The notes: generated by a model from the sequence alone, not told the origin. DNA of 64,000 bases from Bacteroidota bacterium (GCA_021323165.1 JAJTCJ010000003.1:4321-68320), one strand, 5' to 3'. Counted from the stretch's first letter, positions 9,788 to 26,504 are shown. A program made the numbers and translations.

Positions 9788-9961
9788 AATAACAAAAGTA
9801 TCTTTCCCTTCTAATAAACTTGTAATGATTGCTTCCTGTTGTCCCTTAAAGCTATCGAATCCGAAAAATTTCTGGAGATATTCGGAAAGCGATGTTTCTA
9901 CCTAATAAAAATATGTTACAAAGTCAAACATTTCTCCACTTTAAATCAAATAATCTACGAA

Positions 9962-10930: not shown

Positions 10931-11003
10931 ACAGAGAATCCTGAAACAGAAGTGAAGGGATAATTTAAACTTTAGGTCTTTACCGTTTGGTGGTTAGAAA
11001 AAA

Positions 11004-11729
11004 ATGAGAATAGCAATTATAGTTCCTGCATATAATGAAGAGAAAGCCATCACAGCTGTGGTGAATGATATGAACGCTGTTGCCAGGGATCATGGTCTGG
11101 ACCTGAATGTAGTTGTAATAAATGATTGTTCTAAAGATTCTACCTCAGAAGTTATTTCAACATTGGATTGCATCGCGTTAAATCTTCCTGTTAATCTTGG
11201 AATAGGAGGAGCAGTGCAAACCGGATTCAAATATGCTTTTGAAAATGGTTACGATTTTGCTATTCAGGCAGATGGAGATGGTCAGCACCCTGCAGCAGAA
11301 ATTCCTAAACTTGTTAAAACTGCTAAAGATCTTAATGCTGACGTTGTTATAGGTTCCCGATTTCTTGAAAAGGAAGGATTTCAATCTTCTGCTTTACGCA
11401 GGTTTGGTATCAATTATTTTAAAAAACTTAACAGGATGCTGGTAGGTGTTTCTATAAACGACAGTACTTCCGGATTTCGATTGATCAATAAAAAAGTTTT
11501 AGAAGTAGTAAGGGAGTATTATCCTGATGAATATCCTGAACCGGAAGCAATCATATTATATTCTTTGTTAGGATTTAAAATAATAGAAGTACCTGTAACC
11601 ATGAAAGAGAGGCAGGGCGGTGTTTCTTCCATTGGCGGTTCTTCTTCTGTGTATTATATGTTTAAAGTAACTCTTGCAATTATTTACACTTTTATAAGAA
11701 TACGATTTAGAAAAAAAAATAATCATTAA
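11004..11729 (+). CDS. family 2 glycosyltransferase (GT-A fold)
   Basis: IVPAYNEE, INDCSKDST and QADGDGQHP (DxD-type) motifs. Confidence 0.8.
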   Translation: MRIAIIVPAYNEEKAITAVVNDMNAVARDHGLDLNVVVINDCSKDSTSEVISTLDCIALNLPVNLGIGGAVQTGFKYAFENGYDFAIQADGDGQHPAAEIPKLVKTAKDLNADVVIGSRFLEKEGFQSSALRRFGINYFKKLNRMLVGVSINDSTSGFRLINKKVLEVVREYYPDEYPEPEAIILYSLLGFKIIEVPVTMKERQGGVSSIGGSSSVYYMFKVTLAIIYTFIRIRFRKKNNH

Positions 11730-11734
11730 TCATC

Positions 11735-12073
11735 ATGGCAAAAATTCAAATAATTGCAATCGCAGTAAGCCTTCTTTTTCTCCTTTATATTGTTCGCTTA
11801 ATTGTAAAGGGGAAATTAAGAGAAGAGTATTCAATTATATGGATCGCTTGTACACTTGTCCTAATTGTATTTTCTTTCTGGAGAAATGGTTTGGAGGTAA
11901 TGGCGGGAATTATCGGAGTTTACGAAGCTCCTAACTTGGTATTCACCGGAGCTATCTTTGCTATATTCATTTATCTTCTGCATTTATCTGTGGTTGTTTC
12001 TAAGCTGCATTCTCAAAATAAACAACTTGCCCAGGAAATTGCTTTGCTTAAAGAGAAGATACTTAAAAAGTAA
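11735..12073 (+). CDS. DUF2304-like small membrane protein
   Basis: 112 aa with 3-4 TM helices plus a C-terminal coiled-coil tail. Starts 5 bp after the GT2 gene, an arrangement I recall as typical for DUF2304. Confidence 0.5.
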   Translation: MAKIQIIAIAVSLLFLLYIVRLIVKGKLREEYSIIWIACTLVLIVFSFWRNGLEVMAGIIGVYEAPNLVFTGAIFAIFIYLLHLSVVVSKLHSQNKQLAQEIALLKEKILKK

Positions 12074-12114
12074 TTTCAGGTTTCAAATTTCAAATGAAAA
12101 GAATAGCAATTACT

Positions 12115-13218
12115 TTACTCCGGTAAAATATCCTTCAGCTTTTTATTTCCGAATTCTATATAACGATAAGTTAGAAAAGAAAGAAGGAACAGGAAAAAAA
12201 GATAACAAACTACACGAAGAACAGTGTAATCCATTATAAAGAACCACCGCATGTTTCCATGCCATAAATAAAGGCTATAGCACATCATTCCGCTTAACTG
12301 CAAAAACTTATTCGTAAAAAGATATCTCAGTATATTTTGCCGCATATACAAAAGTGAAAAGATAATCATTCCAAATCCTATCTGAAAAACTGTATTGATA
12401 AAAGGTTCTGTCCAGTCAGGTAAAAGCTTAAGGAAAACATAATCCGAAAAATAGAATCCAAGAGTGATCACTAAAAGTGAAACAAGAAATAAAACTTCTG
12501 CATTTTCCCTGAACCAATTCGTTTTCCATTGTGTGTGCCATAGATGACAAAATACCATACCGGCAGCAAAATCATCAAGTCTTCCCGGAAGGCTGTCTTT
12601 GATCATGCTTAAATGTGGCGCTACCTGATATTCCGGATAGAAATGCGCGACAACTCGCACTATAAAGCTCATTATAAATACAAGAATGGCGAATGTTTTA
12701 ATACCGCGATGTTTAATGAAAAGAACTAATAAAGGGAATACAAGAGAAAAGAGGACTTCTATCCCTAAAGACCAAAGCACATAATTGTGAGGAGGAATAA
12801 ATGTTTCTCTTGTAAAATTAAAGGTGAAAGTAAACATAAGGATTGTTTGCTTCCAGAAACTGCTGTCGTAAATATTGGTCTGGTGAAGAATAAATATTAT
12901 TGCAATTACTAAAGCAATATAATACAATGGAAATAAACGCGCGGCTCTGTTTTTGAAAAACGAAACAATATCCGGTCTGCCGGAAAAATCACGGCTGCCG
13001 TTAGAATAAGGTAAATACAATACAAATCCGGAGAGGATAAAGAATAAATTTACTCCAACCCAGCCATTACTTAAATAAGTCAAAGGCATTATCACCAGAT
13101 CTCCGATCTCAATATTTAACCAGCCCGGTTGATTGAACATAACACCTATCAGGTGAAAGTATATCACTCCGAGAATAGCGTAGCCGCGAAGGCCATTTAT
13201 GACTGATAATCTTTGCAT
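12115..13218 (-). CDS. acyltransferase family 3 (OafA/NolL-type membrane O-acyltransferase)
   Basis: About 10 TM helices and the N-terminal INGLRGYAILGVIYFHL motif (conserved R...H of acyltransferase_3). Confidence 0.8.
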   Translation of the reverse strand: MQRLSVINGLRGYAILGVIYFHLIGVMFNQPGWLNIEIGDLVIMPLTYLSNGWVGVNLFFILSGFVLYLPYSNGSRDFSGRPDIVSFFKNRAARLFPLYYIALVIAIIFILHQTNIYDSSFWKQTILMFTFTFNFTRETFIPPHNYVLWSLGIEVLFSLVFPLLVLFIKHRGIKTFAILVFIMSFIVRVVAHFYPEYQVAPHLSMIKDSLPGRLDDFAAGMVFCHLWHTQWKTNWFRENAEVLFLVSLLVITLGFYFSDYVFLKLLPDWTEPFINTVFQIGFGMIIFSLLYMRQNILRYLFTNKFLQLSGMMCYSLYLWHGNMRWFFIMDYTVLRVVCYLFFLFLLSFLTYRYIEFGNKKLKDILPE

Positions 13219-13293
13219 AGTTTGTTGAGTAAATATATAATTTTAATTTCATGACAAGCCATTTTGAAGTTAAGAAAGCCAGATATTTTATAC

Positions 13294-13301
13294 TATATTT
13301 G
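13294..13301 (+). promoter_or_regulatory. candidate -7 promoter box TATATTTG
   Basis: Exact TAnnTTTG match 12 bp upstream of ATG 13313, which would give a very short leader. Confidence 0.25.
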
Positions 13302-13312
13302 GTTAACAGAAT

Positions 13313-14812
13313 ATGAAACATCAATTCAAACAACTCTTAGATCATCCCTGGTTCTTTCCTGTATTGCTATTTAATTATGGGTTGTTCTGCATCCTGTTTG
13401 CTGAAAAATATCCGGCAAATGATGGTTTTGGTACTGATGGATACGTCTTTCTTACATTCGTAACAGATTTTGTTCATAGTCCTTTTTTTGATAGCTATTA
13501 TATACATAGAGTTTTACCCTCATTTACAATTCGGGCAGTATTAAAGTTGATTTCACTCGAGTTGACACCGTTAAATGTCTTTTACAGTTATGAAGCACTC
13601 AGTCTTATAAGTGTTGTAACCGCAGGATGTTTTATAAAGAAAATTCTTGTGGTTCTGAATGTGAGTCTTAAGAATCAACTTTTAGCCTTTGTATTGCTGT
13701 TTGTGAATTTTGCATTACTCAAATGGCCATTCTATTTTCCGGTCATGACAGACACCCTTACTTTAGCATTAAGTATAATGCTGCTTTATTTCTATTTAAA
13801 AAATTCATTATTGGGTTTGATCCTGGTTACCACCGCACTTGCATTCACAGGTCCGATGGCATATTATCAGGGCTTGATTTTAATTGCATTGCCATATCGT
13901 AAACTTGATTATCGTGATATACCGGCAATAGGGAAATGGACATTGTATGGATTTTCTATTTTACTTTTTGTGCTGGCATTTTTCTATGTTATTATAATTA
14001 AAAATGAGAATACAGATCTTGCTTTCGTTCTTAAGATCGATCAGGATCTGATTTGGGCGAGTGTTTTAATTATTCTTATTATGTATGCCGCTTACGCAAA
14101 GATGTTTATGAATGCTGAATTGTTTTCACTTTCATGTATTCATTCCTCAGTTGTGATTTCACGTTTACTATCTGCAATTGCCGTTTTTGCAGGCGTGATT
14201 CTTATCATATCAATGATAGATGTTCCTCAAACTGCAATTTACCCAATGGTGAAAATTCTTAAGAATCCTATGGTATGTGCTTTGATCAACCCCTTTCTGA
14301 CCATTGTTTCGCATTTTACATTCTTTGGTGTATCCATCTGTCTGCTGATCATTTTCTGGAGTGATTTCGCTAAGATGATAAGTACATCAGGATGGGGATT
14401 AATAGGTGCGTTTTCTCTGAATCTTTATTTATATGGAATAATGCCGGAGAGCAGAACTCTCATGAATTTATTTCCCTGGATAGTCGTGTTTTTAATTTAC
14501 TCAATAAACAACAAGGTGTTCTCTAACTCATTCTATTATATCATAGCCATTTTATGTTTGCTTGTGTCAAGAGCCTGGTTGCCGATAAATTTGCAGGCAA
14601 TAGATAAGGTTGATGAGAATGGTTCTATCGATTTTCCAAATCAGTTGTTTTATATGAACATGGGACCCTGGATGAGTTTGAAAGCACTTTATATCAATGG
14701 GCTTGTAATGTTGATTTGTTTTGTGGTCATCATTAGTGTTCTTTATATCTCAGGCGAACTAAAGGTCAAAAAATATTTTAAAAAGGTCGTTTCGACAAAT
14801 GGCAATGGATAA
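13313..14812 (+). CDS. large polytopic membrane protein (possible GT-C or polymerase-like)
   Basis: 499 aa with 12 or more hydrophobic segments. First of three overlapping genes. Confidence 0.6.
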   Translation: MKHQFKQLLDHPWFFPVLLFNYGLFCILFAEKYPANDGFGTDGYVFLTFVTDFVHSPFFDSYYIHRVLPSFTIRAVLKLISLELTPLNVFYSYEALSLISVVTAGCFIKKILVVLNVSLKNQLLAFVLLFVNFALLKWPFYFPVMTDTLTLALSIMLLYFYLKNSLLGLILVTTALAFTGPMAYYQGLILIALPYRKLDYRDIPAIGKWTLYGFSILLFVLAFFYVIIIKNENTDLAFVLKIDQDLIWASVLIILIMYAAYAKMFMNAELFSLSCIHSSVVISRLLSAIAVFAGVILIISMIDVPQTAIYPMVKILKNPMVCALINPFLTIVSHFTFFGVSICLLIIFWSDFAKMISTSGWGLIGAFSLNLYLYGIMPESRTLMNLFPWIVVFLIYSINNKVFSNSFYYIIAILCLLVSRAWLPINLQAIDKVDENGSIDFPNQLFYMNMGPWMSLKALYINGLVMLICFVVIISVLYISGELKVKKYFKKVVSTNGNG

Positions 14813-15251
14813 GTTTAAAATAAAAAAGATCTGCATTAATGTCTTTCTATGTGGTTTCCTTGTTTTTGTCGGGCTTCAGCAATGGAGGACATTTGAGAAA
14901 TACAGCCTTCAGTTTGAAGCTCCTCTTTCTTATACTGAGCAAACACTTGGTAACGACTTTATTACCAACTATGGAAAGAGATTTACTGAAGTAAAACAGT
15001 TTTTGAATGAAACAAAGAAGATTGGGTACTACAGTGAGAACAATCAGAACATGCCTACTTATTATTTACACTATGTATTAAGCCAGTATTACCTCGCTCC
15101 AACCTTACTTGGGAAAAATGAAAACAGGGATACTGTTTTGTATAATTTATATGATTCATACAGAATTGATCCTGAAAATTATCATTTGAAAAATGGTTGG
15201 CAGGTAATAAAAGATTTTAATAATGGTTTTATCCTCATCTCCAGAAAATGA
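14799..15251 (+). CDS. membrane-anchored hypothetical protein
   Basis: 150 aa with a single N-terminal TM. Overlaps the upstream gene by 14 bp and the downstream gene by 4 bp. Confidence 0.5.
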   Translation: MAMDKFKIKKICINVFLCGFLVFVGLQQWRTFEKYSLQFEAPLSYTEQTLGNDFITNYGKRFTEVKQFLNETKKIGYYSENNQNMPTYYLHYVLSQYYLAPTLLGKNENRDTVLYNLYDSYRIDPENYHLKNGWQVIKDFNNGFILISRK

Positions 15252-16615
15252 TCCTTGGACTGTATTGGTTAATTGTCTTTTTAATTGGAGCATTCACAAC
15301 TTTTAGTGTATTGAAGAACATTAAGGGATTAAATTTACGTTTGCTTTTAAATCTATCTCTTCCCGTTTCGATAGGTATAGCTTCGGTTATGTTTGTTTTT
15401 TTGAATATCATCGGACTTTCGATATACGCCATTCTTCTTCTGGAGTTTATTGTTTTGATCTTTTTGATGAAAAAGCAACATGCATCACTTCCGATTTTAG
15501 TACAGGGGAAGAAATTTAATTTTCAATTTTTTAAATACGAAATTATAGTCCTTGTTCTAATAGCATTCTATATTTATTCATGGTTGATGAATGCCGGCAT
15601 ATTTTATTTCGATAGTATAAAGGAGCCGCATGGCCTTTGGGATGCCTGGTCGTACTGGAATATGAAGGCTAAATTTATTTCCCGTTCACCGGATAGCTGG
15701 ACAGAAATAATCGGCCAATTAAATTCACAGGATTTCCATGGTGATTATCCATTGATGCAGAGTGCATTTATTGCAAGCTCATGGCTCTTTACCGGCAAGG
15801 AATCAGTTTGGATACCAATTGTCTCTTCCTTTGTATTTACTTTTTGTACCATTGGATTATTAACCGGTGCTGTAACTTATTTCTCAACTTTGAAAAGAGG
15901 TTTAATAGCGGGAATTGTTTTGTTAAGCACTCCTTTCTTTTTTACACTTGGTGATTCTCAATATGCCGATATAACAGTTGGTTTCTTTTACCTGGCTTCG
16001 ATTGTTTTTATCACACTGGCTGATAATACTGGGGATAAAAAAAACATGAACGTGTTTTTTATTTCAGCCGGTGTTATGGCTTCGATGGCCGCATGGAGTA
16101 AGAACGAAGGTTTGTTATTTATTTGCTGTTTGATCATTTCCAGGAGTGTATTGAAGATAAAAAAACCTGTAGAATTATGGCTGGAAATGAAATGGTTCGT
16201 ATTAGGGTTATTACCGGTAGTTCTGCTTCTGTTGTATTACAAAACTTTTATTGCCGCACCGAACGATATTCTGGAAGCACAAAATTCTACAGGATTTGAT
16301 AAGCTTACAGATATTGAGCGGTATAAATTAATCGGCTCATGGTTTATACAAAGAGCAATGAATTTTGGTGAGTGGATATTTAACCCGGTTTTTCTTTTTA
16401 TTCCTTTGGTCCTGATCAAAGGATTCGATAATAGTAAAAAAACGTTGAATGGCTTTCTCTTTCTTTTTCTGATGCTGGGTGGTTTCTTTTTCTCTTATGT
16501 AGTTTCCTATATTGAGCTGGTATTTCATTTGTCCACTTCTGTGCACCGTTTGTTTTTTCAACTATTTCCGTGTTTTATATTTCTCTCATTATTGAGTTTA
16601 AAAAAAGGAGAATAA
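15248..16615 (+). CDS. GT-C fold membrane glycosyltransferase, ArnT/PMT_2-like
   Basis: 455 aa with about 11 TM helices. Shows a PMT_2-like pattern (HGDYPLMQSAFIASSWLF, QYADITVGFFYLA, AAWSKNEGLLF). Confidence 0.6.
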   Translation: MILGLYWLIVFLIGAFTTFSVLKNIKGLNLRLLLNLSLPVSIGIASVMFVFLNIIGLSIYAILLLEFIVLIFLMKKQHASLPILVQGKKFNFQFFKYEIIVLVLIAFYIYSWLMNAGIFYFDSIKEPHGLWDAWSYWNMKAKFISRSPDSWTEIIGQLNSQDFHGDYPLMQSAFIASSWLFTGKESVWIPIVSSFVFTFCTIGLLTGAVTYFSTLKRGLIAGIVLLSTPFFFTLGDSQYADITVGFFYLASIVFITLADNTGDKKNMNVFFISAGVMASMAAWSKNEGLLFICCLIISRSVLKIKKPVELWLEMKWFVLGLLPVVLLLLYYKTFIAAPNDILEAQNSTGFDKLTDIERYKLIGSWFIQRAMNFGEWIFNPVFLFIPLVLIKGFDNSKKTLNGFLFLFLMLGGFFFSYVVSYIELVFHLSTSVHRLFFQLFPCFIFLSLLSLKKGE

Positions 16616-16647
16616 GAGTTTTGTGACTAAGGCCCCAAAAATTTATA

Positions 16648-17127
16648 TCACACCTTACGAATAAACTTGGCCGGATTTCCCATCCATAATTCATTAGCCG
16701 GAATATCTTTTGTTACAAGGCTGCCTGCACCGATCATGGAGTTTTCGCCAATAACAACGTTTCCAAGGATTGTAACATTAACACCTATAGATGCACCTTT
16801 TTTAATTGTGATTGTTTGAAATTGGGCAGGATGCTGTTTGGAACGTGGGAATTTATCGTTTGTGAATGTAGTATTGGATCCGATAAAAACATTGTCTTCG
16901 ATCCTCATTCCATCCCATAAATACACTCCGCATTTGATTGTAACATTATCTCCGATGATAACATCATTTTCAATAAAAGTATGACTATTGATATTGCAAT
17001 TTTTTCCGATAACAGCTTTGCTTAATACTATTGCGAATTGCCATATTTTGGTAGCATCACCAATGTTTTTTGTCTGCACATCCGATAAGGGATGAATAAA
17101 TACTGCCGTATCTTCGGTCTGCTGCAT
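16648..17127 (-). CDS. left-handed beta-helix sugar N-acetyltransferase (WbpD/WlbB or QdtC/FdtC-like)
   Basis: Hexapeptide repeats throughout. KIWQFAIV...IGKNCNI...IGDNVTI...[15 protein letters not shown]...GNPAKFI matches the nucleotide-3-amino-sugar N-acetyltransferase pattern. Confidence 0.75.
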
Positions 17128-17141
17128 ATTATTTACAATTA

Positions 17142-18071
17142 TTAAAGTATAGTTTTATCAACGATAAAGTTGGGTCTTTTTTTAGCTGAATCATTGGCAC
17201 GCCAGACATATTCTCCGATAATCCCTAAAGCTGTCATTTGAAAGGCAGAAACAAACAAAAGGACAACCATCATGCTTGTCCAGCCTGAAATAGGAATATT
17301 ACCTGTGAATTTTGCAATGATCACAAAAATTCCATAAGCAAAAGCTGAAAGGCCAAGCAGAATGCCAACAAGGGATATGAGACGGATAGGTGCATAAGAA
17401 AATGACACAAAAGAATCAACAAATAACTTCACTTTCTTTTTTAATGTCCATCTTGATTTGCCGATCTCTCTCTTTTTTCTGACATAGGGAATACTTACAA
17501 AATCGTAATTAAGCCATGAAAGAAGATAGATCGTATTTGTATTGCTTTCATCAATGTCAACAACCTGTTTACATAATTGTTTGTCGAATAATACAAAGTC
17601 AAATCCACCGGGAGGAATATTTTCCAACGCAAATTTCCTCATTAAAAAATGATACGTGTTTGAAAACAGTTTCTGGCCAAAAGATTCTTCCCTGTCTTTT
17701 CTGTTAGCGATCACAAATTTTACGCCCTTGCACCAGTAATCATACATTTTAGGAACAAGATCAAGTGGATCCTGAAGATCTGCAGCGATTATTACATTAC
17801 AATCTCCAGTTGAATAATTCATTCCTGCTAAAATTGCGTTATAAGAACCGACATTGCCTGCGAGCTTTATTATTTTAACTTTCGTAGGATGAACATTGTG
17901 AAATTTTAATAGTTCTGCATACGTGTTGTCTTTAGAACCATCATCAATAAAAATGTATTCGAATGTAACATCGGGAGAAAAATTCTTTTCATTATCAATC
18001 AGTTCAGCGGATGTAACAGGAATATTCTGTTCATTAAAATAACAGGGGATAATATATGTAAGTTTCGCCAT
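17142..18071 (-). CDS. GT2 polyprenyl-phosphate glycosyltransferase (ArnC/GtrB/DPM1-like)
   Basis: [17 protein letters not shown] and AADLQDP motifs, plus two C-terminal TM helices ending IIGEYVWR. Confidence 0.8.
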
Positions 18072-18095
18072 GATAAATTATTTTAAGAATTCAAT

Positions 18096-18779
18096 TTAAA
18101 CCAATCCTCCATTCAGATCAATATATGCTCCTGTCAGATATGATGTTTCCCGAATGTATTGTATAGTTTTTAAAAGATGTTCCGGGTCACCAAATTCATT
18201 ACAAGCGATCTTTGATTTGATCTTTTCCTGCATTTCCTTAGGAACAGTATTTATCATTCCAACCTTGAAATACCCCAGGTTAATATTATTGATAGTAATT
18301 GACCGCTGAGCATTTTCCAAAGCAATGCTTTTTATCATCCCGTTCAATCCCGCTTTAGACGCAGCATACGCGCTGGTTCCTATCACTCCGGTTTTAGCTA
18401 CAATTGACGATAAGTTGATGATTCTTCCGAATTGCTGTTCACGCATGTGAGGAAGGATTGCTCTGATAAGATAAAATGTTCCGGTTAGATTTACATTAAT
18501 GACCTTTGCCCATTCCTCTGCATCCGATTTATGCGCAAATGAATTGTAGGACATTCCGGCACAATTAATAAGTGTGATCTCTTTAAGCTGAGAACCAATA
18601 TTTTTTATGAAAGATTCTACCTGCTTATTGTCTGAAATATCCAAAGCATAACAATCAGAATATTGCTTTCCGGCAGGTTTCGCTAAATGATAAGTTCCGA
18701 TAACCTTTTCACCTTTTTCTAAAAGTGCATTAAAAAGATAATTGCCGATACCTCCCGTTATTCCTGTTATTACGATCAT
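18096..18779 (-). CDS. short-chain dehydrogenase/reductase (FabG-like)
   Basis: TGITGGIG cofactor motif, NCAG, and catalytic YAASKAG (YxxxK). Confidence 0.8.
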   Translation of the reverse strand: MIVITGITGGIGNYLFNALLEKGEKVIGTYHLAKPAGKQYSDCYALDISDNKQVESFIKNIGSQLKEITLINCAGMSYNSFAHKSDAEEWAKVINVNLTGTFYLIRAILPHMREQQFGRIINLSSIVAKTGVIGTSAYAASKAGLNGMIKSIALENAQRSITINNINLGYFKVGMINTVPKEMQEKIKSKIACNEFGDPEHLLKTIQYIRETSYLTGAYIDLNGGLV

Positions 18780-18815
18780 TTTAATCTAAAAAAATTATCT
18801 GTTAAACTTTTCCTC

Positions 18816-20882
18816 TTACAAACTTTTCTTTTTCGCCCAGTTAAGATTGCCGTTTGCAAGCTTATGGTTTGGATCGATTTTTAAAGCTTTGTTGCAGGCT
18901 TCAATTGCTTTGTCCCATTGCTGAAGCTGATTGTATGATGCACACATATTGCTGTAAGCATCTGCAAAATCAGGCTTTAAACGTACTGCATTTTCACAGG
19001 CTTCAATACATTTTTTATAATCCCCTTTTTGATAAAATGATAAACTCAGATCAAGATACTTTTCTGCTGTGGGTGATTTTTTAGCATCTTCTTCAAGGAT
19101 CTGTACGTGATCTTTTCTTGTTACAGATGCTTCAAGGTAATTCAAAGCTTCCTGGTTGCCGGGAATGATCTGAAGTGTTTCCTGAGCGAGTTTGTTTAAT
19201 TTATCCCATTCCCCTGTTTCGCTGTATGCTTTCATAAGAGCGCTGTGAGCTCCAATGTGAGCGGAAGACAGTGCAATGGTCTTTTCAAGCATTGGGATTG
19301 CTTCATTATACCTTAACTGATTGCAGAGGAAATTACCGTAAAAGAACCAGGCTTCAGGATAATTAGGCCCACATTGAACAGCACTCTTAAAATAAGTCTC
19401 AGCAGCGACCTTATCACCGGTTGCATTTTTTAATACACCAAGGTTAATGTGAAGGGAATAATAATACGGCCACATTGCTATTGCCTGGTTAAAATATTTT
19501 TCTGCATTTACGTAATCACCCCGCCCCATTAAAGAAAGTCCATAGTTCATTAAACCACGTGCATTCTTAGGACTTTTAACTGTTACATCCTGCCATAGGG
19601 TTTCTTCTGTATTCCAAACTTTGTTTCGTTCATGAGCGCCATAAGCATACATAGATAAAAGCAGCAATACAGAAACAGCAATTGCAGTGTTATAAGTTCT
19701 TGCTTTTTGCAGATAAGAATTCCGGTATTTTAAAAGCAGCAGGCCAATCACCCAGCAAACGCTAACCACCAGGCCTACATAAGGGAAAAAGATCCGGTGA
19801 TCATTTAATATTTCAGCAAAAGGGATAACACTTGAAGAGGGGATTAATGCAAGAAAGAACCAAAGAATACCGAATGATACAGGGCGTAACCTGGAATCCT
19901 TTGAGAACAGAAAAGCAATAATGATCATTACGAGAATAAAGCCTATCCCGATAAAAAAGCGGATGTTCCATATCGAAGTTATTACCTGCCAGTCAGTATC
20001 GGCACTTAAACCAAGAGGAAGGAAGAAAGTGCTGAAATAATGAAAAATAACAAAGGGTTGAGAGATCAGATAATTAAAAACGGATGTTCCTCCGGATTGC
20101 CAGTTTTCCGGTGTAAAGTGGTCGACCAGAAGATACATGAGAGCACAAAAGATAAAGGATGGAATTGATGCCTTAATGACTGCCAAGGTTTCTTTGAATC
20201 TTGCTCTTTTAAACATATCATACAAGCTCAACTTTTGCTCGAATAACATAATGTAAAAGAATAACATTGGTGCGAACATAACGGCTGTAGGTTTTGCCAA
20301 TGCGCCAATTCCAACCGGGATCAGGTATAAGAAGGTACGTTTTGAAAAAGGAGAGAAGATATACAGAACAAACCCGAGAATAACAAAGAATGTGGATTGA
20401 AGATCGGAGCGTGCAATAATATAATTAATGGTTTCTGCATTAGCTGGGTGAAGCATATACCAGGATGTAGCTCCTGCCGCTATAAAAAAATTCCAGTCAT
20501 TCCTGAAAGAAATATCGAACATCTTAAAGATCACAAAGAACATTAAAATACCCTGCATCAAAAATAAGATAAACGAGGAAAGATGGAAATAAAAAAGATT
20601 ATAACCTTTTCCTGCCCAATAATCCAGTGCCAGAGAAGTACTTACAACTGGGCGGTACGACTGATTGGAAGGCAAGGAGCTAAAGCTGGTTCCATCCTTA
20701 AAGAAAAGCGGGATGTTTTTTATATCCTGAATGAATATATTGTTCTCAATAGTATGGGAGTCATCAAAGTGAAACGAATTATTAAAATGATTGGAATAGG
20801 TTATGGTAACAGCGACAATAAGGAGGAATATAAAAATAAGGGATTTCCTCATCGGTAATCCATCGGATAATTGCTTGATCAT
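18816..20882 (-). CDS. TMTC-like protein: N-terminal GT-C-type multi-TM domain plus C-terminal TPR array
   Basis: NSFHFDDSHTIENN acidic motif in the first loop after TM1 (nt 20760-20780), about 10 further TM helices, then about 7 TPR units (about 18816-19600). Confidence 0.65.
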   Translation of the reverse strand: MIKQLSDGLPMRKSLIFIFLLIVAVTITYSNHFNNSFHFDDSHTIENNIFIQDIKNIPLFFKDGTSFSSLPSNQSYRPVVSTSLALDYWAGKGYNLFYFHLSSFILFLMQGILMFFVIFKMFDISFRNDWNFFIAAGATSWYMLHPANAETINYIIARSDLQSTFFVILGFVLYIFSPFSKRTFLYLIPVGIGALAKPTAVMFAPMLFFYIMLFEQKLSLYDMFKRARFKETLAVIKASIPSFIFCALMYLLVDHFTPENWQSGGTSVFNYLISQPFVIFHYFSTFFLPLGLSADTDWQVITSIWNIRFFIGIGFILVMIIIAFLFSKDSRLRPVSFGILWFFLALIPSSSVIPFAEILNDHRIFFPYVGLVVSVCWVIGLLLLKYRNSYLQKARTYNTAIAVSVLLLLSMYAYGAHERNKVWNTEETLWQDVTVKSPKNARGLMNYGLSLMGRGDYVNAEKYFNQAIAMWPYYYSLHINLGVLKNATGDKVAAETYFKSAVQCGPNYPEAWFFYGNFLCNQLRYNEAIPMLEKTIALSSAHIGAHSALMKAYSETGEWDKLNKLAQETLQIIPGNQEALNYLEASVTRKDHVQILEEDAKKSPTAEKYLDLSLSFYQKGDYKKCIEACENAVRLKPDFADAYSNMCASYNQLQQWDKAIEACNKALKIDPNHKLANGNLNWAKKKSL

Positions 20883-20941
20883 ATCGGATTGTTGTTATGT
20901 AAAAATAGCAAAAAAAATATGACCGGATGGAAATTTCGTTT

Positions 20942-20949
20942 TATATTTG
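20942..20949 (+). promoter_or_regulatory. candidate -7 promoter box TATATTTG
   Basis: Exact TAnnTTTG match 79 bp upstream of ATG 21028, in the divergent spacer. Confidence 0.3.
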
Positions 20950-21027
20950 AAACAGCCTTGATACACGGAGGCGATAATCATTTCAACCATTTTAAGAGTT
21001 TTTATAATTGTATTTTAAAGAAAGAAA

Positions 21028-21807
21028 ATGAACAACGATCAGTCTCAACACGACCACGCAAAAAAAGGAAGAAATATTAAAATTGCTGTAATCACTATTT
21101 TATTATTGCTCCCGATAGTTTTTCTATTAGTGAAATTCTCAAAATCTCCTTCAGGAACGGTAAATGAGAAAGCTGTAAATACTGCTGCTCCGGTAATAGA
21201 TATTGCAGGATTTGAAAATGCAGTTAAAACAAACCCAACCTTTGATAATTATATAGGTCTTTCAAATGCTTATGTTAACAGCAACATGCCGGGTAAAAGT
21301 GTGGAGCCGCTTCAAAAAGCGATTGAACTAAATCCTAAGAGCGCCATTGCTTATAACAACCTGGGTGTAGCGTATACCATGCTTCAGCAGTATAACAAAG
21401 GTATAGAAGCTTGCACTAAAGCGCTTGAGATCGATTCAAGTTTCCAGCTTGCCAAGAATAATTTAAACTGGGCAAACAGTGAAAAGAAAAATGTGGTTGC
21501 CTTTTTAGAAAAACAATCTCAAACGCCTGAGGCTTCCCGTGATGCTCAGTTTTATATTAATTATGGATTAGCGTATCTGAAGATAGGAGAGTATGATAAA
21601 AGCATTGAGGCCTGGAATCAGATCTTTAAATATGATCCAAAAAGCATTATCGCTTTGAATAATATCGGTACCGCTTTTATGATGAAGAACCAGGTTGATG
21701 ATGCAATCGCTGTATTTAAAAAGGCTGTTGAAAACGGGCCTGACGATCAGCTCTCTAAAAATAATCTCGCATGGGCAATGAGTGAAAGTGCGAAGCTGAA
21801 GAAATAA
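21028..21807 (+). CDS. membrane-anchored TPR-repeat protein
   Basis: N-terminal TM, then TPR units. ALEIDSSFQLAKNNLNWA resembles ALKIDPNHKLANGNLNWA at the C-terminus of the neighbouring TMTC-like protein. Confidence 0.75.
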   Translation: MNNDQSQHDHAKKGRNIKIAVITILLLLPIVFLLVKFSKSPSGTVNEKAVNTAAPVIDIAGFENAVKTNPTFDNYIGLSNAYVNSNMPGKSVEPLQKAIELNPKSAIAYNNLGVAYTMLQQYNKGIEACTKALEIDSSFQLAKNNLNWANSEKKNVVAFLEKQSQTPEASRDAQFYINYGLAYLKIGEYDKSIEAWNQIFKYDPKSIIALNNIGTAFMMKNQVDDAIAVFKKAVENGPDDQLSKNNLAWAMSESAKLKK

Positions 21808-22773
21808 TTAATTTTTATTAAGGAAGCTCAGCACCTTTTCGTTTACTTTTTCCGCCTGATCTATAGAAAGGAAGTGACCTGCCTTTTTTATTATTTCTGT
21901 ATTTGCATTTGGAATTAGTTTTTCAGCTCTTTCCAGACTTTTGGAATTATTTATAATATCCTTATCTCCGATAAGAACTAATACTGGTAGCTTTAAAGAT
22001 TCTAATTCCTGATCAGTGTAGATCATCATTTTTAAAAAATCCATGTCAGTTCTCATAGTTTTCATGCAGGTATAATATTGTTCAACAAATTGATCTTCCA
22101 ATTTATTTACATCATAACACATTGTTTTTAAAGTACTGCGTAAGCGATTTTTTTCCGGAACGATCGTGAAATATAAATTTTTCAAAACATTCGTTTTAGG
22201 CTTTACCATAGTAAAGGTTTGCGCGGGACTTAGTAAAATAAGTTTATCTATTTTTTTTGGTAGTTTATTTGCAAGCTCCACTCCGATCCAACCACCACGG
22301 GAAGCTCCGATAATACTGAATTTATCTAGCTTAAGCTTTTCGAAAACTTCAGAATACCATTTAACAATGTCTTCTTTCGTTCTTATGCCTTTTGAAAGAA
22401 TGGATTTTCCCGGTTCGGCAATATAATCAATGGCGTATGTCCGGTGTTTTTCATTTAAAGATTTAATATTAGGATACCACATGGTTGAGCTTGCATACAT
22501 TCCATGTAATAACACCAGCGGGCTACCTCTTTCCGGCCCGCTGATGACAACATGTGCTTTTCCATAACTTGTTTTAAGATAAACTTCTTCATACTTCACC
22601 GGCCATAAAGTCAAGGCTTTCGCATATGCTTCGAGATACAAATTCTCTCCTTCCTTCGTTTTAAACAGGGACGAATCCGTCATGCGTGTATTTTCGATAC
22701 AGGTGAAACTTTCTAAACTATATGCAATACTAGCCGCAATGATCAGGACGAGCAACTTGACTGTTTTCTTCAT
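21808..22773 (-). CDS. secreted alpha/beta-fold hydrolase
   Basis: Signal peptide, LLHGMYAS oxyanion region, nucleophile elbow GASRGG, and C-terminal GHF. Confidence 0.75.
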   Translation of the reverse strand: MKKTVKLLVLIIAASIAYSLESFTCIENTRMTDSSLFKTKEGENLYLEAYAKALTLWPVKYEEVYLKTSYGKAHVVISGPERGSPLVLLHGMYASSTMWYPNIKSLNEKHRTYAIDYIAEPGKSILSKGIRTKEDIVKWYSEVFEKLKLDKFSIIGASRGGWIGVELANKLPKKIDKLILLSPAQTFTMVKPKTNVLKNLYFTIVPEKNRLRSTLKTMCYDVNKLEDQFVEQYYTCMKTMRTDMDFLKMMIYTDQELESLKLPVLVLIGDKDIINNSKSLERAEKLIPNANTEIIKKAGHFLSIDQAEKVNEKVLSFLNKN

Positions 22774-22909
22774 GACATGTCTCTTAAAACAATTTACTTT
22801 AGAGTTTTAAAAATTGATGCCAAGGCCATTGAATGTGCCGATAATATTGACTTTGGGATCTGGTTGGAAGAAATTACACGATGAATGGCTTAATTGGAAG
22901 GTTGACAAA

Positions 22910-23464
22910 TTAGATCCTTTTACCAGCTTCACTGGCGGTAATGAGAGGTTTCATTCTCGAAATCCTTGTTTTTTCCTGCTTTGCGCTCATTACCCAATGA
23001 ATACAAACATTGCGAAAGGAGGGTGGTAGAGCATTGAAAAACTTGTGTGCTTTTTTATTGCTCCGTAGTTGATCTTCGTATTCTTCAGAAAGGACTGATG
23101 GACATTTTTCATATGAATAGATAACCGAACGTTTTTCCTCCCTTTTTTCAAAGGCGGCTATCCCACTGGGTTTTAACATCCCATTTTCTTTAAGCTCAGA
23201 AATTTTTTTAATATTTATCGCACTCCAGATACTTTTTGGCTTTCTTGGAGTAAAGCGGATGCAATAGCTTTCTTCGTCAATAGATCTTCTGATCCCATCG
23301 ATCCAGCCAAAGCATAAAGCCTGATCTACGGATTCTGACCAGGTGAGACTAGGTTTACCGCTTTTTACTTTATAAAATCCAACAATAAGTTCTTTTTCCT
23401 TTAAATGGTTTTTCTCGAGCCACTTTCGGAAGTCGGATTGTTTGGGAAAAAAGACTGGTTCCAT
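22910..23464 (-). CDS. YdeI/OmpD-associated family protein
   Basis: FRKWLEKNH...ALCFGWIDG...RFTPRKPKSIWS pattern. Confidence 0.6.
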   Translation of the reverse strand: MEPVFFPKQSDFRKWLEKNHLKEKELIVGFYKVKSGKPSLTWSESVDQALCFGWIDGIRRSIDEESYCIRFTPRKPKSIWSAINIKKISELKENGMLKPSGIAAFEKREEKRSVIYSYEKCPSVLSEEYEDQLRSNKKAHKFFNALPPSFRNVCIHWVMSAKQEKTRISRMKPLITASEAGKRI

Positions 23465-23492
23465 TTTACAAAGTTAGCACAAAGTCTAAATT

Positions 23493-23520
23493 AAAAACGC
23501 CCCATGAAATCATGAGGCGC
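23493..23520 (-). terminator. rho-independent terminator downstream of the YceI-family gene
   Basis: 9-bp stem with one mismatch, CGCCCCATG / CATGAGGCG. The A-run at 23493-23497 gives a T-run on the minus strand. Confidence 0.55.
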
Positions 23521-23539
23521 TCACAAACAGAAATTAAAA

Positions 23540-24148
23540 TTATTTAACTGCAGCTACAACATTCACGTTTAATTCAAAGTCATCGCTGATTGCTTTATCG
23601 CCAATGCCTTCCATAAATGAAGCAGAACCGTATTTAATATCAAACTTTGTTCTGTTAACTACAATTTTAGCAACTGTCACCAATGTTTTATTATCCATTT
23701 TAATCATCGCAGGAAAAGTGATCTCATTTGTAATTCCTTTGATGGTCAATTTTCCGGTTACATCATAGTTGTTGCCTTCTTTTAATACCGCTTTCGTTAT
23801 TTCAAATTTCGCAGTTGGATTTTTTTCAACCGAAAAGAAGTCATCATTTTTTAAATGACCAACCAGTTTACCGCTCCATTCGGGGTCAGTAATATCTGTA
23901 CAGGTAATAGAATTCATATCGAACTCCAGGTTGCCGCCTGTAAGGGTTTTGCCATCACTTAAAATATTTCCTTTAGAAATACTAATCCCTCCGGAGTGTT
24001 GCCCGGTTACTTTTTTACCTAACCAGGTAGCTGATGTTGACTTTGTGTCTACTGTATAAGTAACACCTTTTTTAACTTCATTTGTTGTGAAAGCCATTGC
24101 TGTTACTGCAGCTATTGCAATAAAGCCCATTTTAATTTTATTGATCAT
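23540..24148 (-). CDS. YceI-family periplasmic protein
   Basis: Signal peptide and a YceI-like beta-barrel pattern (W.G.K....H.G...KFEIT...LTIKGITNEI). Confidence 0.7.
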   Translation of the reverse strand: MINKIKMGFIAIAAVTAMAFTTNEVKKGVTYTVDTKSTSATWLGKKVTGQHSGGISISKGNILSDGKTLTGGNLEFDMNSITCTDITDPEWSGKLVGHLKNDDFFSVEKNPTAKFEITKAVLKEGNNYDVTGKLTIKGITNEITFPAMIKMDNKTLVTVAKIVVNRTKFDIKYGSASFMEGIGDKAISDDFELNVNVVAAVK

Positions 24149-24233
24149 AGGATATGTTTTTATAATTACACTGCAAATATATGTATATACATATAATGTT
24201 CCAACAGTTTTTGAAAAAATATTTTGTTTTAAA

Positions 24234-24266
24234 TAAAAAAGACCTATATCGGGGCGATACAGGTCT
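24234..24266 (-). terminator. rho-independent terminator downstream of msrB
   Basis: 11-bp stem with one mismatch, GACCTATATCG / CGATACAGGTC, with a GGG loop. The A-run at 24235-24240 gives a T-run on the minus strand. Confidence 0.65.
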
Positions 24267-24285
24267 CCTTAAAAATGGGAGAATT

Positions 24286-24774
24286 TTACTTTTTAAACTC
24301 AATAGAAACTGAGTTTATGCAGTAACGTTGACCTGTAGGAGCTGGACCATCATCAAATACGTGGCCAAGATGCCCCCCGCATTTAGCGCAGGTGATCTCT
24401 GTTCTTATCATACCATGCGATTTATCTTTTGTATAGACAACCTTTGTAGAATCGATTACATCTGAAAAACTTGGCCAGCCACAGCCTGCATCAAATTTTG
24501 TATCTGATTTAAATAATTCCGCACCGCATGCAGCACATACATACGTACCTTTTTCTTTATGAAGATAATATTTGCCGGAGTATGGTGCTTCTGTTCCTTT
24601 TTCTCTTAAAACTTCATATTGCTCAGGATTCAGAATTTTTTTCCATTCTTCATCTGTTTTTTCTACTTTATCGATCATAGTGCTTTTAGGTTTTGGAGTG
24701 GTTGAGTTATTCTGGCTATTGCCTTCACAGGCAGACAAACTTATCACAAGGACCAAAAAAAATAATTTTTTCAT
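24286..24774 (-). CDS. msrB: peptide-methionine (R)-S-oxide reductase, lipoprotein form
   Basis: Zinc CxxC pairs ([21 protein letters not shown]), GCGWPSF, and catalytic RYCINS. Lipobox LVISLSAC. Confidence 0.9.
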
Positions 24775-24887
24775 ATTGGGTATGTTGGTTTACTCAGAGA
24801 TATTCGTGTTAAATAGCCTTTTGGTTTTATGCCTGTCGTTAATTTATGTTAAGGAATCTGTAAAAAAAATATTCCAGTTCCGGTTTA

Positions 24888-26504
24888 TTATTTAACAGGT
24901 GGTTTCGGAGGACTTTTACTTTTTGTTTTTTTTACATCCGCCTGCTCAGCGCCCGGTCGAATTAGTTTAACGTCTTTTATCTTTTCGGAAGTGTAATCCG
25001 ATTTATCAAATATGTGAACAGTTTCCGTATAATCCGCAAAATTCTCGGCAGTGACCTTAAGAATATATTTACCTGGATTTAATAAAAAAATATATTTCAT
25101 GTTTTGACCATCAATGTCTTTGGAACCAATTTCAGCATTTGTTGCTGCATCAATCAATGTTACCGTGGCCGTTAAAGTAACAAGGGAATCCTGCGTTAAG
25201 ATATTGCCTTTAAGAATGGTTTGTCTGACTTCTACCTCATTGAATGTCACTTTATAAAGATCAAGATCACCATAACCTTCCGGTCTCACAGCTGCTATGT
25301 AACCATCACGTTGATTACCGGCAAGAGTGAATTCCATGTTGTCTTCAGGAGTATTGATAGGATAACCTATATTTACAGAAGGCCCGAAAGTCTTACTGAC
25401 AGAATCATAAACGGACTTAAATATGTCAAATCCGCCCATGCTTTTTGGTCCTTCGGAAGCAAAATATAATGTTCTGCTGTTCTCATCATAGATCGGGAAA
25501 GCTTCCCTGTATTTTGTATTAATGTTAGGACCAAGATTTACTGGTTTGGCCCATTCTCCATTTGGTAATTTTTTCAGCATGTAAAGATCAGTTTCGCCCA
25601 AACCTCCTTTTCTGTCTGATGAAATAATTACTGTTTTAAGATCACTTGTGATACAGCCTTCAAGTTCCAGATCTGCAGTGTTTACCGGCTCAGTGAAAGA
25701 GGTCGGTTTTGGAAAAGTTTTTCCTTTACCTGATGAAGTAATAAAAAGATCTCCGGAAATATTCATTCGGACATTATCCTGATATACTATCATGTTTTTT
25801 CCATCCGGTGTAACGTATACACACTGCTCATCTTCTGCGGTATTAACAAGAGTTCCCAAGTTTTTTGCTTTAGTGAACGCGCCATTCACAACTTTTGATG
25901 AATAAATATCCGATGTATAAAAACCTTCCCAGCTTGTTACGCTTCCTGTATTGGTTTCTCTCCTTGAAGTAAAATACAATGTGCCTTCGCTTTGGATCAC
26001 ATAGGGATAATAATCAGGATATTTTGAATTCACAGCTTTTCCTAAATTTTCAAAACTTACATTTAAGGGCTGAGACACGATTTGTTTGGCATTATTACAA
26101 TAAGCAATGTATAAGTCTGCCATCTCATAATTCTTTTCAGCAGTTTTAGATCTGAAGAGATTGAAATATTTTAAAGCATCATCGAACTTATAAGAGTAGA
26201 GATAACCTTGCCCAAGCATGAAAACAACTTCTTCATCATTGGGATTTTTTTTAAATAGGAAATGCAGATAGGGAAGAGCTTTTGTTTTATCTCCATTTAC
26301 ACTCAGGTAACATATTGCCAGGTTTCGGTTGATCTCAGGATTACTCTGATCACTCGGCCATTGTTCAAGATAACCTGCTAAGGCGCGGTTATAATCATTG
26401 TTATCAAAATAAACTTTTGGACTTAATTTTTCTTTTGAGTTCTGAGAAATTGAAATAGTAAAAAATGTACAGAATACAAGTGTGAGAATATTGAACTGTT
26501 TCAT
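24888..26504 (-). CDS. TPR + PD40 (TolB-like) repeat periplasmic protein
   Basis: Signal peptide, N-terminal TPR, repeated PD40-like units (LYFTSRR, VYVTPDGKNMIV, LYFASEG), and a Pro/Lys-rich tail. No OmpA domain. Confidence 0.65.
   Translation of the reverse strand: MKQFNILTLVFCTFFTISISQNSKEKLSPKVYFDNNDYNRALAGYLEQWPSDQSNPEINRNLAICYLSVNGDKTKALPYLHFLFKKNPNDEEVVFMLGQGYLYSYKFDDALKYFNLFRSKTAEKNYEMADLYIAYCNNAKQIVSQPLNVSFENLGKAVNSKYPDYYPYVIQSEGTLYFTSRRETNTGSVTSWEGFYTSDIYSSKVVNGAFTKAKNLGTLVNTAEDEQCVYVTPDGKNMIVYQDNVRMNISGDLFITSSGKGKTFPKPTSFTEPVNTADLELEGCITSDLKTVIISSDRKGGLGETDLYMLKKLPNGEWAKPVNLGPNINTKYREAFPIYDENSRTLYFASEGPKSMGGFDIFKSVYDSVSKTFGPSVNIGYPINTPEDNMEFTLAGNQRDGYIAAVRPEGYGDLDLYKVTFNEVEVRQTILKGNILTQDSLVTLTATVTLIDAATNAEIGSKDIDGQNMKYIFLLNPGKYILKVTAENFADYTETVHIFDKSDYTSEKIKDVKLIRPGAEQADVKKTKSKSPPKPPVK

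Follow-up and report, generated by a model that had tools for sequence, protein, structure and literature searches.

The window analysed here is a stretch of 64 kb from a Bacteroidota bacterium (GCA_021323165.1 JAJTCJ010000003.1:4321-68320), and all positions given below are counted along it. It carries a gene for a protein of 688 amino acids (aa), in which a membrane domain resembling that of the eukaryotic TMTC proteins is followed by an array of tetratricopeptide repeats (TPRs). This putative glycosyltransferase, hereafter the transferase, and the genes linked to it are the subject of this analysis. A preliminary description of the locus had claimed five open reading frames, namely the transferase gene, three genes that follow it on the minus strand and a divergent gene for a stand-alone TPR protein, and all five were found at exactly the positions claimed. 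The genes are listed below, with the basis of the assignment in brackets.

18816-20882, minus strand: candidate TMTC-like glycosyltransferase of the GT-C type, 688 aa, with a catalytic domain of 11 transmembrane (TM) helices and a TPR array (open reading frame, hhalign, Foldseek, AlphaFold2).
18096-18779, minus strand: classical FabG-like short-chain dehydrogenase/reductase (SDR), 227 aa (Pfam and NCBIfam).
17142-18071, minus strand: GT2_309, a predicted polyprenyl-phosphate glycosyltransferase of family 2 (GT2) and of the ArnC/GtrB/PgfS type, 309 aa, with a C-terminal TM hairpin; part of a variable cassette (NCBIfam).
16648-17127, minus strand: predicted FdtC/FdtD-type sugar N-acetyltransferase with a left-handed beta-helix (LbH), 159 aa; part of the variable cassette (PDB matches).
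21028-21807, plus strand: membrane-anchored TPR protein, 259 aa, divergent from the transferase and a paralogue of its terminal TPR module (BLASTP).
11004-11729, plus strand: GT2b_241, a GacI/PpgS-like polyprenyl-phosphate glycosyltransferase, 241 aa, without a TM tail; the putative donor synthase (NCBIfam PpgS, PDB).
11735-12073, plus strand: small DUF2304 membrane protein, 112 aa, resembling the activator subunits GacJ and Rv3632 (Pfam PF10066, 3.7e-28).
12115-13218, minus strand: Acyl_transf_3 membrane O-acyltransferase, 367 aa (Pfam PF01757, 6.4e-22).
13313-16615, plus strand: rest of the variable cassette, comprising polytopic membrane proteins of 499 and 455 aa and a protein of 150 aa.

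TMTC1-4 constitute family GT105 of the CAZy database and are O-mannosyltransferases of cadherins that depend on dolichyl phosphate mannose (Dol-P-Man). The relationship of the transferase to these enzymes was examined with a bacterial profile built from a 12-sequence alignment of the N-terminal domain, and with 12 N-terminal sequences of TMTC1-4 that Eisenhaber et al. 2021 provide in their Additional file 1 (PMC7801869). The hhalign comparison of the bacterial profile with the TMTC1-4 alignment gave a probability of 99.55% and an E-value of 2.4e-23 over 391 columns, in which positions 14-418 of the query are paired with TMTC positions 7-432. Single sequences of human TMTC1 (98.2%), TMTC3 (97.1%) and fly TMTC4 (94%) were also recognized, and in the same single-sequence setting ArnT (0.5%), Pmt1 (0.3%) and PglB (0.1%) went undetected. 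A HMMER profile of the bacterial family matched all 12 TMTCs in hmmsearch, with E-values from 7e-21 to 6e-12 (Z = 1e6). Judged by these profile comparisons, homology between the membrane domain of the 688-aa protein and eukaryotic TMTC1-4 spans the whole domain.

A public gene call for this protein, P0010, is 580 aa long and, of the N-terminal 430 residues, spans only about 75%. Its start would therefore seem to be an internal codon, with the loss of TM1 and of the DD and SYRP motifs described below. The start of the 688-aa form is favoured over that of P0010 because the N-terminus is conserved in homologues.

The two domains of the transferase are delimited as follows.

19620-20882, minus strand: membrane (catalytic) domain, residues 1-421, 11 TM helices, N-in/C-out (AlphaFold2 helices, hydropathy, TMTC alignment).
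18816-19607, minus strand: TPR array, residues 426-688, about seven repeats, predicted to be periplasmic (Pfam TPR_1, TPR_2, TPR_19 and others; AlphaFold2).

The AlphaFold2 model has a pLDDT of 86.8 for the full-length protein, and the N-terminal domain modelled separately has a pLDDT of 86 and a pTM of 0.90. The model reveals 11 membrane helices and then 16 helices (residues 426-687) that correspond to about seven TPRs and a cap, in line with the ten or so TM helices beyond TM1 and the seven or so TPR units counted in the preliminary description. Pfam recognizes only TPR families in the 688-aa protein (residues 416-686). The array is long and conserved across the transferase family, including its terminal module. 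Since the number of TM helices is odd and the distribution of lysine and arginine follows the positive-inside rule (14 inside vs 8 outside), the TPR array is placed outside; both the DD loop and the TPR array are thus predicted to lie on the periplasmic side, as in the published topology of TMTCs.

The N-terminal domain was modelled and searched separately because a Foldseek search with the full-length model returned only TPR proteins. The top 12 PDB matches of the N-terminal model comprise ArnT, Pmt4, STT3, one chain from an entry for glycosylphosphatidylinositol (GPI) transamidase, AglB and PglB, with Pmt1/2 also among the top matches, and further matches include ALG3, a GPI mannosyltransferase, EmbB, AftA and DPY19. 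The best matches are all GT-C enzymes, which bears out the GT-C fold proposed earlier for this domain; the top scores have probabilities of 0.98-1.00 and query-normalised TM-scores of 0.31-0.47, with E-values of only about 1e-3. The PMT/POMT enzymes (GT39, including actinobacterial Pmt) share with the transferase the GT-C fold, the acidic pair in loop 1 and, presumably, a polyprenyl-phosphate-linked sugar as donor, and Pmt4 and Pmt1/2 are among the top folds. They differ in that the window protein gives no match to the PMT or PMT_2 models of Pfam, has no MIR domain and reaches an hhalign probability of only 0.3% against Pmt1.

Seven motifs, M1-M7, have been defined for TMTCs (PMC7801869), and five of the seven are retained in the bacterial protein wholly or at their key residues. 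Three of them are located as follows.

20760-20765, minus strand: M1, the DD motif of the first periplasmic loop, present as FHFDD (D40-D41), aligned to FVFDD of TMTCs and presumed catalytic.
20649-20669, minus strand: M2, SHKSYRP in loop EL1, present as SNQSYRP (residues 72-78), aligned to HKSYRP.
19989-19994, minus strand: M5, DW in loop EL4, present as SADTDW (D297-W298), aligned to TMTCs, with D297 invariant and W298 invariant or nearly so.

The acidic HFDD motif that the preliminary description had pointed out after TM1 (residues 11-28) occupies residues 38-41, about ten residues past the helix, and neither D40 nor D41 varies among 42-46 homologues. In M2, the S..SYRP frame is kept with Y76, R77 and P78 invariant, and the His/Lys pair is replaced by an equally invariant Asn/Gln pair (N73, Q74). 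M3, the RxD motif of EL2, is retained; HPxHTE...RAD of TMTCs corresponds to HPANAET...ARSD, in which R158 and D160 are invariant. M4 of EL3, KE(T/Q)xxT, is not matched by the corresponding AKPTAVM, in which K197 is invariant and the last Thr has become Met. In TMTCs, the M4 Lys is assigned to the phosphate and the Glu to the metal (PMC7801869). M6, PxxP in TM9, aligns as ALIPSSSVIP with PFIPASN; P348 and P354 are invariant, and their spacing is different. M7, ERxxY in EL5, is represented by DHRIFF, with R363 invariant, the Glu replaced by an invariant His and the Tyr by Phe. DD, SYRP, RxD, the M4 Lys, DW and the M7 Arg are thus invariant in the bacterial homologues, and in homologues at 50-90% identity the membrane domain has some 60 unchanging positions in all. 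The distant transferases encoded in operons with the synthase pair described below retain FHFDD, DHR and the same terminal TPR module.

Comparison of the window protein with TMTC1-4 therefore shows a homologous N-terminal domain with 11 TM helices, DD, SYRP, RxD, Lys, DW and Arg in matching loops, a C-terminal TPR array that is non-cytoplasmic (here by prediction) and ArnT as the nearest solved fold of both. In contrast to TMTCs, the window protein is bacterial and predicted to be periplasmic, has Pro for the M4 Glu and Asn/Gln for the M2 His/Lys, and lacks DNPA. The donor synthase linked to it is GacI/J-like, of an N-acetylhexosamine (HexNAc) type, rather than a Dol-P-Man synthase.

The latter difference emerged from the gene neighbourhoods. 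Sixteen loci were gathered from reference genomes, 2 from named isolates and 80 from metagenomes, with transferases 24-82% identical to that of the window, and the genes within four genes of the transferase were clustered for 95 loci. The families found were GT2 (36 loci), DUF2304 (20), the 259-aa TPR family (18), SDR (14), Acyl_transf_3 (9) and methyltransferase (5). In 22 of 97 loci, a DUF2304 gene and a GT2 gene of the GT2b_241 type occur together no more than 3.5 kb from the transferase. Where the flanking sequence is long enough, the linkage is found in 11 of 16 loci at an identity of at least 59%, in 5 of 13 at 48-58% and in 6 of 20 below 48%. The preliminary description had held that a polyprenyl-phosphate GT2 is linked to the GT-C enzyme, and this part stands, with a GT2 within four genes in 36 of the 95 loci; the GT2 that is conserved, however, is GT2b_241, which lies outside the coordinates covered by that description. 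The conserved partner of the transferase is the GacI/GacJ-like pair, not the neighbouring GT2_309 and LbH genes.

The pair occurs in three arrangements. It is convergent with the transferase with Acyl_transf_3 and/or SDR genes in between, or convergent with a methyltransferase gene in between, or else GT2, DUF2304 and transferase are co-directional in this order with gaps of 47-81 bp (L056, L073, L084 and L098, at 40-45% identity). In a further locus (L046), the pair lies about 3 kb upstream of the transferase, and the pairing is present even with a homologue from Bryobacteraceae of 24% identity (L016). The methyltransferase, a class I enzyme of 289 aa, lies between the transferase and the DUF2304/GT2 pair in L017, L023, L027, L031 and L035 (50-55% identity). 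Its presence in the position of SDR/Acyl_transf_3 suggests a lineage-specific modification of the transferred sugar. DUF2304 genes are generally rare in genomes, with about one copy each, and because of this rarity, and because the linkage survives rearrangement, the association with GT2b_241 and DUF2304 is regarded as the strongest functional clue.

In the window, the GT2b_241 and DUF2304 genes are only 5 bp apart. GT2b_241 matches DPMS (5mlz, 6e-14), ArnC (2e-10) and GtrB (1e-7) in the PDB, and its best NCBIfam match is PpgS (1.4e-25; 90 bits vs a cutoff of 370, so that sugar specificity is a matter of analogy only). On these matches, GT2b_241 is a member of the polyprenyl-phosphate glycosyltransferase family. 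In Streptococcus pyogenes, the DUF2304 protein GacJ binds and stimulates GacI, the product of which is undecaprenyl phosphate N-acetylglucosamine (GlcNAc-P-Und), and the GT-C enzyme GacL then transfers GlcNAc outside the membrane (bioRxiv 10.1101/180810). Other characterised DUF2304-assisted synthases are EpaI/J, which makes GlcNAc-P-Und, and PpgS/Rv3632 of M. tuberculosis, which makes the N-acetylgalactosamine (GalNAc) derivative GalNAc-P-polyprenol; WpsA/B is a further example. The window resembles these systems in that a GT2 and a DUF2304 activator would make polyprenyl-phosphate HexNAc for a polytopic GT-C enzyme, in the gene linkage of GT2, DUF2304 and GT-C, and in that the GT2 of the window is TM-less and directly precedes DUF2304. 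This is in contrast to the type of GT-C enzyme, which here is TMTC-like with a TPR array rather than GacL-like, and to the substrates of the known systems, which decorate rhamnan or arabinogalactan.

With moderate confidence, we propose that the transferase is a periplasm-facing GT-C enzyme of the TMTC type, that its donor is an undecaprenyl-phosphate-linked HexNAc (Und-P-HexNAc) supplied by the GacI/GacJ-like pair and that its acceptor is most likely Ser/Thr of proteins. At the cytoplasmic face, the pair would load a sugar derived from a nucleotide sugar, most likely HexNAc, onto undecaprenyl phosphate, and a flippase would carry the lipid-linked sugar across the membrane. The TMTC-like enzyme would then transfer the single sugar to a periplasmic acceptor, with D40/D41 as the catalytic acidic pair and K197 and R363 holding the phosphate; with 11 TM helices, all of these residues and the DW motif would come to lie at the periplasmic face. 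The acceptor would be bound by the periplasmic TPR array and, by analogy with TMTCs, would most likely present Ser/Thr. As for the other genes, the 259-aa membrane-anchored TPR protein probably assists the transferase or recruits its substrates, SDR and Acyl_transf_3 may be lineage-specific modifiers, and GT2_309 with the FdtC-like acetyltransferase would constitute a mobile amino-sugar cassette, which may supply a second donor or serve the adjoining polytopic proteins. In this scheme, homology, fold, motifs and gene linkage are findings of the analysis, the topology is a prediction, and the donor sugar, the acceptor and the parts played by the accessory genes are inferred.

By analogy with the characterised DUF2304-assisted synthases, the donor is most likely Und-P-HexNAc, and a polyprenyl-phosphate sugar as donor, already suggested in the preliminary description, is retained as a sensible inference. 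The acceptor is probably protein, which is favoured because of the specific kinship with TMTCs and because protein O-glycosylation has precedents in the streptococcal Pgf and GtrB/PgtC2 systems. In these, too, a GT2 synthase and a GT-C enzyme accomplish extracytoplasmic protein O-glycosylation in bacteria; they differ in that the GT-C enzyme belongs to the YfhO family and has no TPRs, and in that they occur in Gram-positive hosts and modify disordered tails rich in Ser/Thr.

Several observations weigh against this proposal. Regarding the enzyme, the position of the metal-binding M4 Glu is occupied by a Pro that is (nearly) invariant, the DUF1736 loop lacks the DNPA signature, and the Foldseek E-values are marginal. 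Residues 1-430 give zero matches in Pfam and NCBIfam even at E <= 10, the PMT/PMT_2 models are likewise negative on the window protein, and neither the single sequence nor the 12-sequence profile found a relevant match among PDB sequences. The TM7-TM8 loop of the window protein and of three diverse homologues is not matched by DUF1736 (PF08409) at E <= 10, and DUF1736 and PMT_2 are both absent from the top 120 homologues. The check by DUF1736/TMTC and PMT_2 models that the preliminary description had put forward is therefore negative on both counts, although the profile-profile comparison with TMTCs is strongly positive. The failure of DUF1736 is attributed to the absence of the DNPA segment from the loop, and the Pfam/NCBIfam route cannot decide the homology of the membrane domain. 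Regarding the donor, the match of GT2b_241 to PpgS is far below the cutoff, no GacI/J pair is found nearby in about two thirds of those more distant loci that have sufficient flanking sequence, a Mucilaginibacter homologue has no glycosylation gene as neighbour, and much of the linkage in close relatives could be inherited synteny. In the window itself, the pair lies 6.7 kb from the transferase, across the cassette, and the transferase is apparently co-transcribed with GT2_309. No flippase of the GtrA, Wzx or ArnE/F type was noticed in family scans of the genes at 9839-26504, to which the scan was confined. Regarding the acceptor, TPR arrays occur in polysaccharide-export proteins too.

The same chemistry could instead be directed at a glycan or lipid, such as lipid A, the core of lipopolysaccharide (LPS), O-antigen, capsule or peptidoglycan, in the manner of ArnT, GtrC or GacL, with the TPR array docking export or assembly machinery. 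We assign this reading a lower likelihood than a protein acceptor, but it competes seriously, since the targets of the characterised GacI/J-type systems, and of PpgS, are without exception polysaccharides and not proteins. ArnT is the top structural match of the transferase, both GT2_309 and GT2b_241 match ArnC, and in one relative (L002) Arn-like genes adjoin the transferase with no ArnT visible at the locus. An Acyl_transf_3 O-acyltransferase gene and a KpsF-like gene are found in the conserved neighbourhood, and the weak NCBIfam matches of the TPRs include the polysaccharide-export proteins PgaA and BcsC. None of the opposing points is decisive: the enzyme is specifically TMTC-like in sequence, with ArnT undetected by hhalign, TMTCs act on folded protein domains, and the long TPR array is conserved, its terminal module included. 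In further contrast to the transferase, ArnT, part of the lipid A aminoarabinose system, lacks a TPR domain; its substrate is lipid A.

A different donor is conceivable as well. In this alternative, which we consider unlikely, GT2_309 makes the donor, an undecaprenyl-phosphate-linked N-acetylated amino sugar of the Fuc3NAc/Qui3NAc type, the nucleotide precursor of which is acetylated by the LbH protein. The genes for the transferase, SDR, GT2_309 and LbH protein are co-directional and follow one another with gaps of 36, 24 and 14 bp, and a promoter/terminator scan detected no terminator-like site between them. Co-transcription of the four genes in the window genome is plausible because of the small gaps and the lack of such sites. 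The scan for sigma-70 promoters and terminators gave no more sites than shuffled sequence and was used only for the absence of terminators; promoters of Bacteroidota differ from the sigma-70 type. GT2_309 and the LbH protein themselves agree with the alternative. GT2_309 matches PgfS (8.6e-51, its best NCBIfam match) and ArnC (2.1e-35) over its full length, both under cutoff, and ends in two hydrophobic segments. The SDR matches adh_short of Pfam (9e-42) and TIGR01830 of NCBIfam (1e-50, under cutoff). These matches are consistent with the FabG-like SDR and the ArnC/GtrB-like GT2 with a TM hairpin of the preliminary description, and its QdtC/WbpD-like acetyltransferase is equally recognizable. 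The 159-aa LbH protein is a hexapeptide-repeat transferase by Pfam/NCBIfam, and in the PDB it matches the N-acetyltransferases 7S43 (8e-61), WxcM-like 4MZU (1.7e-57), the LPS-biosynthesis entry 3MQG (4e-24) and QdtC (2e-18), which we take to represent the class acting on dTDP-3-amino-3,6-dideoxyhexoses (FdtC/FdtD-type).

Related loci provide arguments on both sides of this assignment. In L001 and L002, amino-sugar cassettes with a similar GT2 follow the transferase and SDR co-directionally, and GT2s with a C-terminal TM tail adjoin the transferase in the distant loci L024, L032, L033, L042 and L087. L001 contains two additional genes between SDR and GT2, one for an FdtA-type ketoisomerase (PF05523, 1.3e-36) and one for a DegT aminotransferase (3.5e-120). 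With these two enzymes, the FdtC-like LbH protein completes the classical dTDP-3-acetamido-3,6-dideoxyhexose pathway. The cassette of L002, in which a distant Arn-like version of the GT2 and LbH pair lies beside the transferase, consists of a GFO/IDH/MocA oxidoreductase, LbH, DegT, a formyltransferase, an ArnC-like GT2, an epimerase/dehydratase and another DegT in this order; its content is WbpB/D/E-like and Arn-like. The difference between the two cassettes is as expected of a swap-in hot spot. Most other close relatives are cassette-free; the transferase, with or without SDR, is immediately followed by Acyl_transf_3, DUF2304, the 241-aa GT2, KpsF and RecQ. Since L001 and L002 differ in this segment and most close relatives have no cassette, the region 13313-18071 of the window is a variable insert at such a hot spot, and the genes at 13313-16615 are absent from this position in most relatives. 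In the comparison with L001, L002 and L004-L010, the hot spot corresponds to the interval that separates Acyl_transf_3 from SDR/transferase.

The orthologue of GT2_309 and the LbH gene follow the transferase in only one of 97 related loci (L001). The SDR lies directly downstream of the transferase in 11 loci, each at an identity of at least 59%, and Acyl_transf_3 lies between transferase/SDR and DUF2304 in 9 related loci. The four-gene operon is consequently rejected as a conserved unit; the preliminary description had itself named a non-conserved gene order among the results that would refute it. A tblastn search found no FdtA or DegT gene anywhere in the 64-kb window. In terms of the Fdt/Qdt pathway, the window thus has an acetyltransferase of the FdtC/QdtC type without FdtA and an FdtB-type aminotransferase, and so without a local pathway. 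In L001, moreover, a membrane protein of the family of the 499-aa protein (TM499) overlaps the end of the LbH gene; the GT2 and LbH genes share an operon with this protein, an alternative user of the donor. The FdtC/FdtD-like acetyltransferase is orphaned in the window, and the cassette may be decayed or rely on genes located in other parts of the genome. Compared with the cassette-free loci, the window and L001 have Acyl_transf_3 in the opposite orientation.

A non-catalytic role as TPR scaffold or chaperone, the membrane domain having lost its transferase activity, is very improbable: the M4 Glu and the DNPA signature are missing and no curated hidden Markov model recognizes the domain, but the 60 or so invariant residues include DD, SYRP, RxD, K197, DW and R363, the positions of which line the donor site in TMTC models, ArnT likewise has no Glu at the M4 position in the alignment, and linkage of a scaffold to a lipid-sugar synthase makes little sense. 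Two further ideas were set aside. A role as the general Bacteroidota O-oligosaccharyltransferase is unlikely; that system uses oligosaccharides linked to undecaprenyl diphosphate, in contrast to the monophosphate-linked single sugars of the TMTC type. A DprE2-like role of the SDR, in which a lipid-linked keto-sugar is reduced, is speculative; no partner oxidase is found nearby, and the DAO gene by an Emticicia homologue looks like GlpD.

The bacterial profile matches 56,287 cluster representatives (at 50% identity) at E <= 1e-3 and 2,218 at E <= 1e-30. TMTC homologues have been noted "even among prokaryotes" (Eisenhaber et al. 2021, PMC7801869), and some homologues are labelled "protein O-mannosyl-transferase" by the Joint Genome Institute (JGI). 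On account of this remark and these labels, the existence of bacterial TMTC relatives is not new. What is new is the full-length TMTC homology of a clade invisible to Pfam, the ways in which its motifs differ, and the fact that it is repeatedly linked to a GacI/GacJ-type pair and not to a mannose donor. In the open-access literature searched, in which only one paper mentions DUF1736, no study was found that characterises a bacterial TMTC-like enzyme; this upholds the statement of the preliminary description that no characterised bacterial member is known, and its overall assignment as a TMTC-type GT-C enzyme with a C-terminal TPR array is supported by hhalign, hmmsearch and Foldseek alike.

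Through the link to a GacI/GacJ-type synthase, a very large bacterial family, for no member of which an experimental function was found, gains a testable function, and where automatic annotation calls them "protein O-mannosyl-transferase", the sugar is probably misnamed. In humans, TMTCs are linked to disease, and they have no solved structure in the PDB copy searched; the family offers a bacterial model for their structure, mechanism and TPR-guided choice of substrate. More tentatively still than for the proposed reaction, and with some doubt on our part, the locus may represent a previously unrecognised Gram-negative system for periplasmic protein O-HexNAc modification, in which a single HexNAc from a GacI/GacJ-type synthase is attached and the TPR array, perhaps together with the TPR partner, selects folded domains of periplasmic proteins much as TMTCs choose cadherin domains. 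Such a system would be a bacterial counterpart of the TMTC pathway, and possibly a relative of its ancestor.

The stand-alone 259-aa TPR protein shares 43% identity over 87 aa (E 7e-19, BLASTP) with the C-terminal TPRs of the 688-aa protein, in agreement with the resemblance noticed previously. Members of its family are found near the transferase gene in 18 of 95 loci and mostly occupy position -1 in divergent orientation. The transferases of L004-L012, L023 and L030 (51-73% identity) are longer, about 780-800 aa, with an additional C-terminal TPR module that resembles the 259-aa protein (33-40% identity), and most of the closer relatives with such longer transferases also retain the divergent stand-alone gene.

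The GacI/J-like pair is flanked by a KpsF-like gene with SIS and CBS domains (9839-10930, plus strand; likely a sugar-phosphate isomerase) and a RecQ-like helicase gene (7700-9787, minus strand). These two genes are syntenic in about ten related metagenome-assembled genomes and are probably housekeeping context rather than members of the system.

The 499-, 455- and 150-aa proteins of the cassette (13313-16615) match no Pfam or NCBIfam family. The polytopic 499-aa protein (13313-14812, plus strand) has 29 homologues among 5.8 billion proteins. All are hypothetical, and none has a Pfam domain by which the family could be recognized as a GT-C partner of GT2_309. One homologue is fused to AlgX/SGNH domains, and L001 has two paralogues (13750-15273 and 15293-16780). 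The TM499 family may be the real user of the cassette lipid-sugar or a component of glycan O-acetylation. The 150-aa and 455-aa proteins (14799-16615, plus strand) are also paired in L006 (3257-5049) and L008 (2212-3995), at 42-45% identity, and in L006 a 395-aa GT2 is encoded just downstream of the pair.

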